Notes: generated from the sequence alone by a model not told the origin. 64,000 nucleotides of DNA from an uncultured Gammaproteobacteria bacterium (GCA_964345375.1 CAYFQP010000003.1:8875-72874); one strand, 5' to 3'; shown: positions 241 to 36,983, counted from the first letter of the stretch. Made by a program: numbers and translations.

Positions 241-262
241 TTAAATTAACTTTCTCTCAACT

Positions 263-335
263 AAAAAAGCCCCTCTCGGGGCCTTGCTGGATTGAGGGCC
301 TTCGGCCCCTTTTAAAAAGCCCAGTCAGACTGGGC
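263..335. terminator. cluster of three GC hairpins with flanking A/T runs (two minus-strand, one plus-strand intrinsic terminators)
   Basis: GCCCCtctcGGGGC (269-282) preceded by A6; GGGCCttcGGCCC (296-308) followed by CTTTT; GCCCAGtcagaCTGGGC (319-335) preceded by A5. Confidence 0.45.
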
Positions 336-3270: not shown

Positions 3271-5496
3271 TTATAAAGAAGTCCGCTTTAGCCTTAATGA
3301 ATTTAGAACTACCGAAAGCGAAGAAAAGGCCATTGCTCCTGAAGCAAAGATCGGGCTTAAGAGAATTCCGAAAAAAGGATAAAGAATGCCGGCGGCAACA
3401 GGAATCAAGGCAGAATTATAGAAAAAAGCCCAAAACAGATTCTGTCTGATCGTCCGCATCGTCAACTTAGAAAGTTTAATCGCTTCAACTAAATCCATCA
3501 AATCTGACTTCATTAAAGTAATCCCGGCTGACTCCATCGCCACATCAGTGCCTGCCCCCATAGCAATACCCACATTAGAGGCTGCCAAAGCGGGAGCATC
3601 ATTGATGCCATCACCGACCATAGAAACAATTTTCCCTTGTTTTTTGAGCTCTTTAACCTTCCCCTCTTTCGCAGCCGGAACCACCTCAGCCATAATTCTT
3701 TCCTTGCTAATCCTAACCTTCTTACCAATTGCCTCAGCTGTTCGAGGATTGTCTCCTGTTATGAGCCAAACATCAAGTCCCATTTTTTGTAAAACTCTGA
3801 CTGCTTTCTTAGAATTTTTCTTAAGAGTGTCCGCCACTCCAATGAGGCCAATAACTTTTTTATTGAGAGTCATTAAGATGGCTGTTTTACCCTCATCTTC
3901 TAGTCTCCTCATCCCCATTTCTGCCTCCTTAGAAATCTTAATCTTAAACTGACTCATTAAGGCCCGGTTGCCCTTAATAATCACCTCTTTACCTATATTT
4001 GCTCTAATTCCCTTACCAATTATGGCCTGAAAGTTTTTAGGCTCAATTAATTTAAGTTTTAATTTCTTGGCTTGCTCAACCACTGCCTGGCCTAAAGGAT
4101 GTTCGCTTCTTAGTTCAGCACTGGCTGCCAATCTTAGCAGCTCATTCTTGCTTTCATCTCCCAAACTAATAACGTCTGTCACCTCAGGCTCACCCTTGGT
4201 TAAAGTCCCGGTTTTATCTAAAACAATTGCTTCTATTTTATGAGTAGTCTCTAAGGCAGCCGCGTCTTTGACCAAAATACCTCGCTCAGCTCCCTTACCT
4301 GTGCCCACCATGATTGCTGTTGGCGTTGCCAAGCCCAAAGCACAAGGGCAGGCCACAATTAAAACCGCCACAAAAACAACCAGAGCAAAAGTTAAGCTCT
4401 GGCCACCAAGCAACAACCAAAAACCAGCCGATAAAACAGCAATAAAAATCACTGCCGGAACAAAATAGGAAGCCACCAGATCGGCCAAACGTTGGATTGG
4501 CGCTTTTGAACCCTGAGCTTCTTCAACTAACTTAATAATTTGGGCCAAAACCGTCTCTTTGCCTACTTTAGTAGCTTTGAACTTAAATGAGCCAGATTTA
4601 TTAATCGTTGCTCCAATTACCTGATCGCCCTTCCTCTTCTCCACCGGCATACTTTCCCCTGTCACTAATGACTCGTCAACCGCAGACTGACCCTCAATAA
4701 TCACGCCATCTACTGGAATTTTCTCACCTGGTCGAACAATAATAATCTCGCTAACCTTAACCTGGTCTATGGGAATATCCTTTTCCTTACCATTTCGAAC
4801 CACTCGGGCTGTTTTCGGGCTTAAACCCATTAACTTTTTGATCGCCTCAGAGGCTTGCCCCTTTGCCCTTGCCTCTAAAAGCCTGCCTAACAATATTAGG
4901 GCAATAATGATAGCGGCGGTTTCAAAATAAACTTCAGGCTGGATACCAGTCGGAGTTAAAATTGCAGGGAAAAATGTAGCTATGGTTGAATATAAGTAAG
5001 CCGCTGAGGTGCCGACGGCAATCAAAGTATCCATGTTGGCGGAAAGATTTTTTAAACCCCGCCAGGTACCCTGGAAAAACTCTTTTCCTGCCCAAAAAAG
5101 GACTGGGGTTGTTAGGACAAACTGGGCTTCTGGAATCATTAATTTGCTCATCCCTCCAACCAGAACGATCGCGGCTAAAAGACCACTAATAAAGACTTTT
5201 CTCTTTAACTCTTTTATCTCTGCCTCTTTCATCATTACCGCATGATCATGATTTCCTATTTTCTCCATATTTTCTTCAGGTTTTTGGGTAGCAACAAGCT
5301 CGTACCCTACTTTTTTAACAATCTCCGCCAGCTTCTCTACATTTATTTTTTTCTCATTAAACTCAATTGTCACTTTTTCAGCGGCAAAATTAACTAGCGC
5401 TGACTTAACGCCATCTATTTCCCTCAACGCTTTCTCGATTGTGGCCGCACAGGTGACACAATGCATCCCTCTGAGAATAAAATTTTGCTTTTTCAT
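3271..5496 (-). CDS. copA: copper-translocating P1B-type ATPase
   Basis: N-terminal [18 protein letters not shown] transmembrane motif, [15 protein letters not shown]. Confidence 0.9.
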
Positions 5497-5506
5497 TGTT
5501 CTTCGA

Positions 5507-7063
5507 TTACCTTACATAGGGACAATTAGGGCGACCACAGCCTCCGCCACAGCCTCCGCCACAACTACATCCCCTTGCCCCTGAAGGTATCTCTTCACCA
5601 CTAGGAATAATCACTTCTCTCGCAGAACCTGATTCATCAACCACCTCAATTACTCCAGAAATCATCCCCATCCAACAACTGAACTTATATCGGCCAGGCT
5701 TTTGAGGAATAAACTCCTTGACGGCCAACTCTTGGTTTAAATCAATTTGGCCTGAAAATAGACCCTTAGAGACAATTGCGTTGGTGCAACCACTAACTCC
5801 TTTATTAGTTATCTCCCATCTTGCTGGTACGCCTGCCCGAATTTTAAATTCATTGGGTTCATAACCGTAAGCCAGAGCATCCATCTTTAGTACTTGTTTG
5901 CCGTTAATAACAGGGATAAGTCCATCTGTACGGATTTGGGTGCCTAAGAGGCTGGGCCTGAAATCGTTTAGGCTTGGCAGACCCAAAACATTCAACTGGG
6001 AATTAAAAGTATAAAGACCAAAAAATAAAACTAAAATTCCTGCAACTTTAAGGAATTTCTCTGACAAATGGGGTTTTGTTGTCAGTTTCAAACTGGAAAA
6101 ACCAATTGTCACTAACATTGGCAAGGTTCCTAAGGCAAAAAAGAATAAAATCAACATCCCTCTCACACTACTTCCTGAAGCTAAGGCTAATCCTTGGGCA
6201 GTAATCGCAAACCCACAAGGCAAAAAAAAGGTCAAGGCACCAATGGTAAATGGCATATAGCGACCCTTAAGATTTCTCTCATCAGCGACAAAGCGAGAGA
6301 TAGATTTAGGCATGATTATCTGGAATCTTTGGAAGCGCCTGATGCCTAGCATCTGAAGAGCGAGTAAAACCATCATCACCGAAACTCCAATCGCTAAAAG
6401 AGAAGTGCCCATTAAGGAAACTCTAAAAAGTGAGCCAATCGCTCCAAGAAATGCTCCCAAAACAGCAAAAGAGACTAGCCGACCAAGATTAAATAAAAGA
6501 TGAGGCTGGAATCTTATCAGATTAGGAGTACCGTGTTCGAAAATTTCTGCCCATTGTTTAGACATTGATAAAACAATTCCTCCTACTAAAGCTGCACAAC
6601 TAGAAATTCCAGCAATCAAGCCAAATAAAAAGAAGGCAGGAAGTGGAGAAATTGAGCTCACCACCACTCTTGAAGCAATTCCTGTCTGATTAAGGAAAAT
6701 AAAGCCGAAAAGCAATAATAAGGCAATCCCAAAGATCTGAAGATAGCGGAAAAAAAGAACTTTATTAATCATCAGTCCTCCCTCATCAAAAGAAAAAAGC
6801 GGCACTCTTTTCCCTTCCTTAACTTGTTTTTCAAAAAAGGTATAGCCTTCTTTCTGAAATTGCTTATTAAGTTCACTTATAGCTGGTTTTTCTCCTTCAT
6901 AATAAATAGATACCTGCTCTTTGCCCAGAGATGCTTCAACTGCTTCTATGCCCTTCCCCTTAAGAAGTCCTTTTTCAATTATCAGCTCACAGGAAGAGCA
7001 ATGCATTCCTTTTACATAATAAGTGATCTCTTTGAGGGAGGGTTTTTTATTTCTGTCAACCAT
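5507..7063 (-). CDS. heavy-metal-associated (HMA) domain fused to a polytopic permease (TauE/SafE or CcdA-like) with C-terminal cupredoxin-like domain and Cys/Gly-rich tail
   Basis: N-terminal [15 protein letters not shown]; about 8 TM helices; C-terminal beta-rich domain ([17 protein letters not shown]...[12 protein letters not shown]) and tail [16 protein letters not shown]. Confidence 0.45.
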
Positions 7064-7074
7064 TAATCAATAAG

Positions 7075-7620
7075 TTAAAAAAGATCAGCGGTCGCCTCAA
7101 CATCAGCCAGACCTATCACCAATCTTCCATTAGTTACTTCGACGTCTTTATCGATTGGTCGAGGATTACAACCACCTTTTTGGAGAGCAATCTGATCCTT
7201 AGAATACATCACTCGACAGTTTTCGCAACGAATTTGATCGCCAATCTGTTTAAACCCCTTTTGAGATTCGAAACAGACTTCGCAAGCATTAGCCGCCGCC
7301 CTATAAGTTCCATCCGAGGCCTTAACAATAAAAAGATAGATCGTCTTTCCTAGTCTTTCTGAATAATAATTAAAGGGGTGCAAATCGCCATCATTAACTT
7401 TTGATTCCTCTATATAGACTCTTTCCCCTTCTGCCTGAATCGTCTCTCCTTTTTCGCCCAAAAACTTCTCATTTTTTATTGGAGCAGCTGTCTGTCCTTT
7501 TTTACTACCAGTATTCATGTTAATCAGAACTAAACCAAAAACTCCGATGATCACTATTAAAAGGCCAATCGGAATAGCTGCCAACCATTTTTTATCAATT
7601 CGTAATTCATCTTTGCTCAT
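7075..7620 (-). CDS. membrane-anchored CxxC-pair protein (DUF2318-like)
   Basis: N-terminal TM helix; CEVCFES...CENC plus GGC; same operon as copA. Confidence 0.35.
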   Translation of the reverse strand: MSKDELRIDKKWLAAIPIGLLIVIIGVFGLVLINMNTGSKKGQTAAPIKNEKFLGEKGETIQAEGERVYIEESKVNDGDLHPFNYYSERLGKTIYLFIVKASDGTYRAAANACEVCFESQKGFKQIGDQIRCENCRVMYSKDQIALQKGGCNPRPIDKDVEVTNGRLVIGLADVEATADLF

Positions 7621-7973
7621 GGCAATTCTCCTCCATTACAAGCAGCCTTGCCTTGGCATAACCCTCTCTCACACTGTGGGCAAGGCTCTTTCCCTTGAAC
7701 AATCAAGTCGTCACAAGCACAAGTTCCAGCCTGATAATGATTCCATTGATTAGCTTCCATATAGCACATCGTGCAAGGAGGTTCAATACAACATTTATAG
7801 ACTCCCTCTCTCACTACCTCAGCTATTGCTTCGTCCCTTTCTTGGATAATTCTCTGCCATTTTTCGTTTGAGCTTAATTCATTAAAGTTCGGAGTTTTCT
7901 GGTATCGGAAAAATAAAAAACTAGCAAACCCGCCCATAAATAATAGAAGAATGGCAATGATTATTTTTTTCAT
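7617..7973 (-). CDS. cysteine-rich (13 Cys) membrane-anchored small protein, putative metal binding
   Basis: N-terminal TM; CCIEPPCTMCY, GTCACDD, PCPQCERGLCQGKAAC. Confidence 0.4.
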   Translation of the reverse strand: MKKIIIAILLLFMGGFASFLFFRYQKTPNFNELSSNEKWQRIIQERDEAIAEVVREGVYKCCIEPPCTMCYMEANQWNHYQAGTCACDDLIVQGKEPCPQCERGLCQGKAACNGGELP

Positions 7974-8236
7974 TAACTTTTCTCCTTAAAAACTTCGACA
8001 ATTTCCTGATAAACCCTTTTTCTTTCTTTTTTGTTTTTATTTGTTGCAACCCGGGCAACACAAGTATCTAAGTGATTTTTTAAAATCAGTTCATTAACTT
8101 TTTTAAGAGCGGCAATGACCGCCTGATTTTGACGAATAATATCAATGCAGTATTTCCCATCTTCAACCATTTTTAGGTTGGCTTTGAGGTGGCCAAGAAG
8201 ATAATTCATCCGGTTGATAACTTTTCTGTCAGCCAT
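7973..8236 (-). CDS. csoR: CsoR/RcnR-family metal-sensing transcriptional repressor (copper)
   Basis: DUF156-like helical protein with Cys (YCIDI) and His/Cys (HLDTC) ligand positions; start moved to MADRK ATG at 8236 because the upstream part of the track ORF is the promoter/operator. Confidence 0.7.
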   Translation of the reverse strand: MADRKVINRMNYLLGHLKANLKMVEDGKYCIDIIRQNQAVIAALKKVNELILKNHLDTCVARVATNKNKKERKRVYQEIVEVFKEKS

Positions 8237-8243
8237 GAGAAAA

Positions 8244-8272
8244 ATTCTAACCCCCCTAGGGGGGGTTGTCAA
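8244..8272 (-). promoter_or_regulatory. csoR promoter with operator: TTGACA-[ACCCCCCCTAGGGGGGT]-TAGAAT, transcript start ~7 nt before ATG
   Basis: Minus strand reads TTGACA, 17-nt spacer consisting of a C7-TA-G6 palindrome, TAGAAT, 7 nt, ATG. Confidence 0.65.
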
Positions 8273-8281
8273 GAGGTAATT

Positions 8282-8836
8282 TTAGACTAAAAATAAACTA
8301 AAAACAAAGAGGATTATAAACATTAAAAGCAAATAAAGAGCTTGAAAATTATCCGGAAGATGAATATTTACTTGCCAAAGCCAAGAATCCATCCCGCCTG
8401 TTTTGAGAAACTCGTCAAATTGACTAATTAAGGTCTGTAAGAATAAAACCAAGACTAAACCTTTCCCTAGTAAGCCTGCCGAAGAAGTCAAAACAAAGAA
8501 AACCGCGACCAAAAGGACAACCTGGAAGAGAACAGAATGGAAAATTAATCTTTTTCTTTCACCTTGCGTTTCAAAAAGGAGAGCTAAACTATAACGATAT
8601 TGTCCCTGCTGAAGATAGCGCTGTAAACGCTGAGGCGTGAATTCATGAGGATTTTGAAAAAAACAGTAAACCAAATGGTCTAAATCTAAAAGGAAGGCAC
8701 CGATAAAGCCTCCTGCCCAGAAACCTATCAATTGAAGTTTCTCTTGCCAATGAAGCAGGCTGAAAATTCCTAGAAAGATAACAGTGGGTATCAAACGCTT
8801 GAGAATCTCCCTCCTCATGCTTTTATAATAGCACAA
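8282..8836 (-). CDS. hypothetical polytopic membrane protein
   Basis: 184-aa ORF with about 5 TM segments. Confidence 0.45.
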   Translation of the reverse strand: MCYYKSMRREILKRLIPTVIFLGIFSLLHWQEKLQLIGFWAGGFIGAFLLDLDHLVYCFFQNPHEFTPQRLQRYLQQGQYRYSLALLFETQGERKRLIFHSVLFQVVLLVAVFFVLTSSAGLLGKGLVLVLFLQTLISQFDEFLKTGGMDSWLWQVNIHLPDNFQALYLLLMFIILFVFSLFLV

Positions 8837-34283: not shown

Positions 34284-34354
34284 CAGGGGCGGAGGGAATC
34301 GAACCCCCGATTAGTGTTTTGGAGACACTCGGTATACCACTTACCTACGCCCCT
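34284..34354 (-). tRNA. tRNA-Trp (anticodon CCA)
   Basis: Cloverleaf: acceptor AGGGGCG/CGCCCCT, anticodon loop CUCCAAA, T-loop TTCGATT; CCA not encoded. Confidence 0.8.
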
Positions 34355-34362
34355 TTGCCACC

Positions 34363-34388
34363 AAAAAACTCGCCCGCTCGGCGAGTTT
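34363..34388 (-). terminator. intrinsic terminator (attenuator terminator) upstream of tRNA-Trp
   Basis: Minus strand CUCGCCgagcgGGCGAG followed by U6 (plus-strand A363-368). Confidence 0.65.
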
Positions 34389-34514
34389 AACCAATCACAA
34401 AAACAAACTCCCGGCGGTTACCTGCCGTTAAGTTTGCGCCACCAAGCCTGAACCGTTGCTTTGATTTTAGCTATCATTAGCCTTATTTTAATACTTTCAA
34501 ATTAAACTTGTCAA
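34389..34514 (-). promoter_or_regulatory. promoter (TTGACA 34514-34509) plus leader with alternative antiterminator/terminator structures controlling tRNA-Trp-trpS
   Basis: TTGACA then A/T-rich -10 (TATTAA/TAAAAT); hairpin 34412-34427; segment 34405-34413 can pair with 34379-34388 (terminator 5' arm). Confidence 0.5.
34418..34477 (-). CDS. putative 19-aa leader peptide with tandem Trp codons (MIAKIKATVQAWWRKLNGR)
   Basis: ATG 34477, UGG UGG at 34444-34439, UAA at 34420-34418 inside hairpin; leaderless start right after -10. Confidence 0.5.
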   Translation of the reverse strand: MIAKIKATVQAWWRKLNGR

Positions 34515-34516
34515 GT

Positions 34517-34587
34517 GGCAGGGGTGGGAGTTGAACCCACGACCACTTGTTTATGAATCAAGCGCTCTACCGCTGAGCTACCCTGCC
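34517..34587 (-). tRNA. tRNA-Met elongator type (anticodon CAT; could alternatively be tRNA-Ile2 with lysidine)
   Basis: Cloverleaf with D-loop AGCGGTA, anticodon loop TTCATAA, fully paired G1-C72. Confidence 0.7.
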
Positions 34588-34660
34588 TGGTTGCGGGGCC
34601 AGGAGTTGAACCTGGTCTGTGAGATTATGAGCCTCACGTGCTACCCTACACTACCCCGCT
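34588..34660 (-). tRNA. initiator tRNA-fMet (anticodon CAT)
   Basis: Anticodon loop CUCAUAA; 3' end CCCCGCAACCA identical to E. coli tRNAfMet; position 1 (A) unpaired with A72. Confidence 0.65.
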
Positions 34661-36911: not shown

Positions 36912-36983
36912 TGGGCCCGGAAGGAGTCGAACCTTCGTCTGGACTTTATAAGAATCCCATTCTCACCGTTGAACTACGGGCCC
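36912..36983 (-). tRNA. tRNA-Ile with anticodon UAU
   Basis: Acceptor GGGCCCG/CGGGCCC, anticodon stem GGATT/AGTCC, loop CTTATAA (34-36 = TAT), T-loop TTCGACT. Confidence 0.65.

Follow-up and report, generated by a model that had tools for sequence, protein, structure and literature searches.

The locus described here lies on the minus strand of a stretch of DNA of 64 kb, which is the part of the genome that the analysis covered and is hereafter called the window. It consists of a csoR gene that heads a tightly packed five-gene operon, with the gene of a copper P1B-1 ATPase in the last place, and of a promoter directly in front of csoR. In the order of transcription, the genes are the following.

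7973..8236, minus strand: csoR, 87 aa, a CsoR-family repressor predicted to sense Cu(I), with C30, H55 and C59 as ligands (PF02583, alignments).
7617..7973, minus strand: a 118-aa protein that has 10 Cys and, near its N-terminus, a single membrane helix (homologues in the comparison loci L002, L138 and L139).
7075..7620, minus strand: an FtrD-like membrane protein (PF10080, formerly DUF2318), found in the same operon slot in relatives.
5507..7063, minus strand: a 518-aa protein in which HMA, DsbD_2 and cupredoxin-like domains are fused; many relatives have it behind csoR as well.
3271..5496, minus strand: copA, a predicted copper-translocating P1B-1 ATPase (TIGR01511, 614 bits against a cutoff of 397).

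The stop codon of csoR at 7973 overlaps the start of the gene for the 118-aa protein (TAATG), this gene shares 4 nt with the FtrD-like gene, and the last three genes are separated by gaps of 11 and 10 nt. Shine-Dalgarno motifs are found before the starts at 7973 (AAGGAG) and 7620 (GGAGGAG). CopA has an N-terminal HMA domain (CxxC) and, as read in its translation, the motifs CPC, YN-x4-P and M-x2-SS, which are the transmembrane motifs that define the P1B-1 copper ATPases in the P1B classification. The cupredoxin match of the 518-aa fusion scores 25.9 bits, slightly under the Pfam cutoff of 27, and the C-terminal tail of this protein is rich in Cys and Gly. No match to the 118-aa protein was found in Pfam or NCBIfam. 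Its cysteines follow the pattern CC..C..C, C.C, C..C....C......C, and a gene of this kind stands after csoR only in the window and in the three loci named above; to judge by its sequence, the protein may be an undescribed copper-binding protein. Taken gene by gene, the domain matches agree with the operon content that an earlier note on this DNA had proposed (csoR, a Cys-rich protein, a DUF2318-like protein, an HMA-permease and copA).

Across the loci compared, copA follows csoR in most cases. Many relatives share a syntenic backbone of a DUF72 gene, a ydjM-like gene, the csoR cassette and an SDR gene, within which the cargo varies. CopA may be accompanied or not by the FtrD-like, Cys-rich and HMA-DsbD_2 genes, and two loci (L005:6266-7911 and L010:6311-7938) encode a Cys-motif membrane protein of 204-212 aa together with an ArsP_1 permease (PF03773; Pfam was run on the L005 copy) and no CopA. 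By their spacing, L100, L125, L132 and L140 were grouped with these two variants. The slot behind the csoR promoter looks like a swappable metal-resistance cassette.

Homologues of this CsoR occur in the Microgenomates group of the Patescibacteria, including Shapirobacteria, Gottesmanbacteria and Roizmanbacteria, and the host genome is that of an uncultured member of the Patescibacteria (Microgenomates). Two records titled “uncultured Gammaproteobacteria,” L001 (CAYFXA010000008.1) and L005 (CAYGWK010000004.1), have csoR loci syntenic with that of the window and CsoR proteins 66-73% identical to the one described here; they are probably mislabelled bins. The window also has four tRNA genes on the minus strand between 34284 and 36983, three of them at 34284-34660 and one at 36912-36983.

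The assignment of the first gene to the CsoR family, made in the earlier note, is borne out by a PF02583 match of 69.4 bits (cutoff 22.8) over residues 4-84. In the PDB, the protein matches the CsoR proteins of Mycobacterium tuberculosis, Geobacillus and Thermus, and among solved structures that of M. tuberculosis CsoR (2hh7, E = 2.4e-11) is nearest to it in sequence.

In front of csoR, the minus strand from 8272 to 8234 reads TTGACA, ACCCCCCCTAGGGGGGT (17 nt), TAGAAT, TTTTCTC and ATG, exactly the promoter layout, with the start at 8236 and the N-terminus MADRK, that the earlier note had described. The following features were distinguished.

8267..8272, minus strand: -35 hexamer TTGACA (sequence and promoter scan).
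8250..8266, minus strand: 17-nt spacer ACCCCCCCTAGGGGGGT, candidate CsoR operator (sequence and comparative loci).
8251-8264: perfect palindromic core C6TAG6, 14 bp.
8244..8249, minus strand: -10 hexamer TAGAAT (sequence and promoter scan; relatives have TAnnnT at the same position).
8237..8243, minus strand: 7-nt gap TTTTCTC, pyrimidines only, between the -10 box and the start codon.

In a consensus scan, this promoter is the top sigma-70-like site between 2300 and 10300; it matches at 11 of 12 positions and has a spacer of 17 nt. The sigma-70 consensus is here assumed to be valid for Patescibacteria, an assumption that rests on conservation. The spacer had been described as a perfect C7-TA-G6 palindrome. 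A palindrome it is, but the self-complementary core is C6-TA-G6 (14 bp), as the seventh C of the C7 tract has no partner in the G6 arm, and because of this one unpaired C the 17-mer is not self-complementary in register. The palindrome contains the only plus-strand run of at least six G, and its AAC...GTT flanks extend into the final A of the -35 box.

Type-2 CsoR operators consist of two G/C tracts, with 2-4 bases between them and AT-rich flanks (PMC3902906). The site in the window, AA-C7-TA-G6-TT, has the tracts, the spacing and the AT-rich outer repeat of this published class, in line with the previous suggestion that such GC-tract pseudo-palindromes are CsoR-type sites. The CsoR of Streptomyces lividans strictly requires, in addition, a TAC-N9-GTA dyad (PMC3902906). 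The window has AAC-N13-GTT instead and most of the relatives have AAC...GTA, whose right-hand TA is at the same time the TA that opens the -10 box. The site is therefore placed in the general type-2 class, outside the TAC-N9-GTA subgroup, which comprises operators of Streptomyces, Bacillus, Listeria and Staphylococcus.

Further boxes were sought across the 64-kb window, and none was found in a promoter. The sole other C4-N4-G4 match (270-281) belongs to an intergenic hairpin cluster, not to a promoter. This cluster (262-335, plus strand) stands 5' of an ORF at 450-845 and is made up of three adjacent GC-rich hairpins, GCCCCTCTCGGGGC, GGGCCTTCGGCCCC followed by TTTT, and GCCCAGTCAGACTGGGC, possibly a stack of terminators or a small RNA.

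For comparison, 80 loci were chosen from reference genomes by protein similarity alone, and the region upstream of csoR was read in 48 of them. A box of a C-tract and a G-tract is present in every case, that is, in 15 of 15 loci from Patescibacteria and in 33 of 33 other loci, mostly from Chloroflexi. The box lies within a spacer of 16-18 nt in 10 of the 15 Patescibacteria loci, the closest relatives included, so that its position between the -35 and -10 boxes, another point of the earlier note, is conserved in the clade of the window. The -35 box is TTGACA in all 15 except L002 (TTGACG). In the other five Patescibacteria loci and in Chloroflexi, the box is found just 3' of the -10 box, in a leader that has a Shine-Dalgarno motif; the boxes of this kind in the Chloroflexi/Anaerolineae loci (L015-L079) are similar in sequence and often longer (e.g., ATACCCCACCCCCCTGGGGGGGGTAT). 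The position of the operator, in the leader or in the spacer, thus differs between phyla for closely related CsoR proteins.

A blind scan of metagenome contigs was made with a DNA-only pattern, TTGACAAMCCCNCNNNNGGNGGKTA, which holds no coding information and leaves the length of the leader unspecified. Among the 74 sites that it returned, 38 have a CsoR homologue within 900 nt downstream, and two further sites are truncated by contig ends. The other matches precede hrcA, metK, tRNA genes, a 16S rRNA operon and other genes, and come from other, mostly GC-richer organisms. No copper-related gene was found behind the matches that have no csoR, which can for this reason be taken as background; since these matches precede unrelated genes and belong to other organisms, the promoter-embedded box is essentially csoR's alone in this lineage. 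One promoter-like site, TTGACA AACCCCCTCTAGGGGGT TACACT, is identical in L086, L104, L118, L121, L137 and L141. It comes from an unrelated organism, whose 16S rRNA gene (L137:529-2037) follows ~340 nt downstream. A promoter spacer can hold a GC palindrome without any CsoR.

From these sequence comparisons, we consider it very probable that the palindrome is the operator of the CsoR encoded downstream of it, placed inside the spacer of the promoter of its own copper-export operon. Several other explanations were weighed against this one. A ydjM-like membrane gene (8282-8836) is located directly upstream on the same strand, as it is in most clade members, and a lax scan flags AACCCCCCCTAGGGGGGTT together with AGAATTTTTC as terminator-like. 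Given such a hairpin and a co-directional, syntenic neighbor, a role in stopping read-through was considered, in which the hairpin would be an intrinsic terminator or insulator for the ydjM-like gene instead of, or besides, an operator. The RNA hairpin is indeed stable (~-14.5 kcal/mol), but a T-rich tail accompanies just 9 of 37 distinct csoR promoter hairpins, and 13 of the 37, those with GGGGAGGG, have an uncompensated A in the G arm, with the stem down to -7.5 kcal/mol. The fold of 76 nt around it is unexceptional (z = -0.94). Furthermore, L010 and L011 keep the promoter, the box and the leaderless spacing although their upstream neighbor is divergent, and transcription of the operon would be cut short by a terminator at the box in the Chloroflexi loci, L009, L012-L014 and L018, where the box is itself part of the csoR transcript. 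On account of the scarce T-tails, the weakened stems and the module kept beside divergent neighbors, termination was rejected as the main role. We regard this explanation as unlikely, and a terminator effect is possible as a minor side-effect in some copies.

The palindrome might also be the operator of this protein while the ligand sensed is not Cu(I) but Ni/Co, persulfide, formaldehyde or Zn/Cd. The CsoR/RcnR family includes RcnR, InrS, FrmR and CstR, the CsoR of Bradyrhizobium responds to Zn and Cd too (PMC5057107), and in L005 and L010 an ArsP_1-type permease takes the place of CopA after csoR. In the protein of the window, however, Y29, C30, H55 and C59 align to Tyr35, Cys36, His61 and Cys65 of M. 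tuberculosis CsoR at a constant offset of 6, and the C, H and C ligands are unchanged across 35 clade members. Cu(I)-sensing CsoR proteins are tetrameric helical bundles with a Cu(I) affinity of at least 1e18 per M and Cu(I)-dependent DNA release, and in them a second-shell Tyr and Glu couple the binding of Cu(I) to the release of DNA. The second-shell Tyr corresponds to Tyr29, which is invariant; an invariant Glu (E78) is present in helix 3, and the alignment to M. tuberculosis CsoR stops at residue 70, before Glu81 could be matched. The N-terminus MADRK has no His and no Cys, so there is no N-terminal “W” ligand, and an x-C-H-C motif with no such ligand marks the Cu(I)-sensing CsoR proteins (PMC11672702). 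Consistently, the best NCBIfam and PDB matches are RicR and CsoR, both of them copper sensors, and a copper ATPase (TIGR01511) and two HMA domains are encoded in the operon. A ligand other than Cu(I) is, in our estimate, decidedly unlikely.

Residues that contact DNA can be compared in the same alignment. Roles in DNA binding are described for the Arg of the N-terminal RLxR motif and for a conserved Gln past the ligand Cys (PMC3902906). R9 aligns to the DNA-binding Arg15 of M. tuberculosis CsoR, and Q36 stands at Cys+6, the position that the Gln has in Geobacillus CsoR. RLxR lacks its second Arg both here (RMNY) and in M. tuberculosis (RLKT).

The start of translation bears on both the leader and the DNA-binding end of the protein. 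A mechanical ORF call extends csoR to a TTG at 8272, an extension that the earlier note attributed to translation of the palindrome, with ATG 8236 as the true start; this has held up. Most of the homologues are 86-88 aa long and begin at the alignment column of ATG 8236. Over codons 2-11, the entropies summed at codon positions 1, 2 and 3 are 6.5, 4.5 and 10.6, and Asn8 and Arg9 are nearly invariant although Arg9 is encoded by all six Arg codons. The TTG start was rejected on this coding signature and on the starts of the homologues, and it is taken as a product of reading the palindrome as codons, which also explains the PPxG in extended database calls of relatives. By the same coding signature, translation begins at ATG 8236.

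A start further downstream, at the internal ATG 8209 (MNYL...), would shorten the protein and leave a leader of 27 nt. Three NCBI-derived copies (P0001, P0006 and P0116) are annotated in this way, with 77-78 aa, and are nine codons short; they are without the Arg aligned to Arg15 of M. tuberculosis CsoR. Against this start, the third-position variability and the nearly invariant Asn8 and Arg9 indicate that the sequence upstream of 8209 is translated, Arg9 is aligned to a residue that binds DNA, the start column of most 86-88 aa homologues is ATG 8236, and no Shine-Dalgarno motif precedes 8209. Initiation at 8209 is therefore very unlikely.

With the start at ATG 8236, the csoR transcript is predicted to be leaderless, as had been proposed before. 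No Shine-Dalgarno motif was found before this ATG, whereas the internal genes of the operon have such motifs. Among 42 distinct spacer-embedded promoters, the -10 box ends 6-8 nt before an in-frame ATG in 32, with a mode of 7 nt (in three of the 32, an in-frame ATG within the -10 box was judged spurious on inspection and the gap was corrected accordingly). The composition of the gap over 22 aligned relatives is T65 C50 A32 G7, and in such a pyrimidine-rich gap the A of the ATG is the natural purine for transcription to start with; the A of ATG 8236 is thus the predicted transcription start site. L004, L007, L008 and L119 combine this promoter and operator with leaders of 10-38 nt, so members of the clade need not be leaderless.

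A similar spacing was observed at other genes of the window. Of 35 hits of a hexamer like the -10 box (TAnnnT, at least 5 of 6 matches), 14 fall 6-9 nt before the start codon (binomial P = 1.7e-4), for example before the starts at 967(+), 24719(-), 26081(-), 29232(-), 39738(-), 45080(+), 55751(-), 55774(+) and 59607(-). Leaderless mRNAs seem to be common for the first genes of operons in this genome, while internal genes keep Shine-Dalgarno motifs.

The possibility that the palindrome arose by chance, or is a GC-rich spacer with no repressor function, carries next to no weight. As a class, perfect palindromes of 14 bp are unremarkable in number (7 in the window against 4.8 expected), and GC palindromes also occupy the spacers of unrelated promoters, such as those of rRNA (L137) and tRNA genes. 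However, this exact sequence is expected ~2e-5 times per window and occurs once, and the box goes together with csoR both in 48 of the 48 relatives read, from two phyla, and after 38 of the 74 blind pattern matches. The comparative evidence is the decisive argument against chance, which it effectively refutes. A site for a MerR-type activator was also rejected, as such sites have over-long spacers of 19-20 bp, whereas the spacer here has the optimal length of 17 bp and those of relatives measure 16-18 bp, and the adjacent regulator is of the CsoR family.

If the palindrome is the operator of the adjacent csoR, regulation would work as follows. Copper-free CsoR would bind the palindrome in the spacer, probably as two tetramers as in S. 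lividans, and would recognize the two G/C tracts together with the AAC/GTT flanks. Because these flanks have 13 bases between them, unlike TAC-N9-GTA, the details of recognition may differ. The bound protein would cover the -35 and -10 boxes and exclude RNA polymerase. We infer that Cu(I), bound at Cys30, His55' and Cys59', would lower the affinity for DNA and free the promoter. From the A of ATG 8236, or from a base next to it, transcription would then yield a leaderless mRNA for csoR, the Cys-rich membrane protein, the FtrD-like protein, the HMA-DsbD_2-cupredoxin protein and the CopA exporter, of which the downstream genes would be translated from their own Shine-Dalgarno sites or by translational coupling. 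As csoR is the first gene, the circuit would be self-repressing.

How the box came to lie in the spacer can be discussed with more reserve. The position in the leader, as seen in Chloroflexi and in some other Patescibacteria, served as the comparator. It is conceivable, though we would sooner doubt than assert it, that in this Microgenomates lineage the box shifted out of a 5' leader to its place between the -35 and -10 boxes and that the leader was lost, which would leave a control region of 39 bp in an intergenic gap of 45 bp. The hairpin might then dampen read-through from upstream in some copies, and the whole would be one case of a genome-wide leaderless habit. If true, the locus would be a visible case of leaderless expression in a streamlined, uncultured lineage.

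The locus is a well-conserved but ordinary case of a known regulatory design. CsoR boxes, occlusion from within the spacer and leaderless transcripts of csoR-family genes have already been shown experimentally in other bacteria, and what the locus offers is no new mechanism but an unusually clear comparative footprint. To our knowledge, there is almost no experimental study of transcriptional regulation in Patescibacteria/CPR, for which the locus provides a concrete, testable promoter and operator. The predicted circuit can be tested directly in E. coli, since the promoter is near the sigma-70 consensus. The analysis further yields a corrected start codon for the public annotations of this csoR family.

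Among known systems, the site resembles the operators of S. lividans (csoR, copZA1 and copZA2), of Bacillus subtilis copZA, and of Listeria and Staphylococcus, all of which have G/C tracts flanked by A/T (e.g., ATACCCCCTAGGGGTA). The B. subtilis copZA operator reportedly overlaps the core promoter as well. Type-2 operators of the S. lividans kind are located in the promoter of a copper-export operon or of csoR, and are bound by apo-CsoR and released with Cu(I). At the S. lividans site, two CsoR tetramers read the A-like shape of the G-tracts and the flanking dyad (PMC3902906). Compared with these operators, the window has longer tracts (C7/G6 against C4-5/G4-5) and, in place of TAC-N9-GTA, the flanks AAC...GTT with 13 bases between them.

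In its layout, the locus is close to that of NreA in Mesorhizobium, where the operator lies in the -35/-10 spacer and 5'-RACE has revealed a leaderless nreAXY mRNA (PMC12724321). In both cases, a repressor of the CsoR/RcnR family comes first in its own efflux operon, with a dyad in the spacer and a control region of ~39 bp. NreA differs in that it senses Ni, belongs to another clade, has the operator TCC-N9-GGA and the cargo nreXY, and comes from a proteobacterial host. The csoR gene of Bradyrhizobium liaoningense is transcribed from the A of its ATG, and its box overlaps the -10 box (PMC5057107). The csoR-cueA locus of this species is similar to the present one in that a Cu-responsive, autoregulated CsoR is expressed leaderless from a core promoter overlapped by its box; it differs in being divergent, with one box, TATACCC-N5-GGGTATA, placed over two overlapping -10 boxes and outside the spacer.

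A last comparison is with the cso operon of M. tuberculosis, csoR-Rv0968-ctpV, in which csoR reportedly comes first and is autoregulated and a copper P-type ATPase comes last. The CsoR of that species has a C-terminal tail of ~30 residues, which is missing here, and its operator has the inverted GTA/TAC orientation and a span of ~22 bp. The order of the genes, from csoR to the copper P-type ATPase, is shared with the operon in the window, and the long C/G-tract pseudo-palindrome of M. tuberculosis resembles the boxes of the Chloroflexi.
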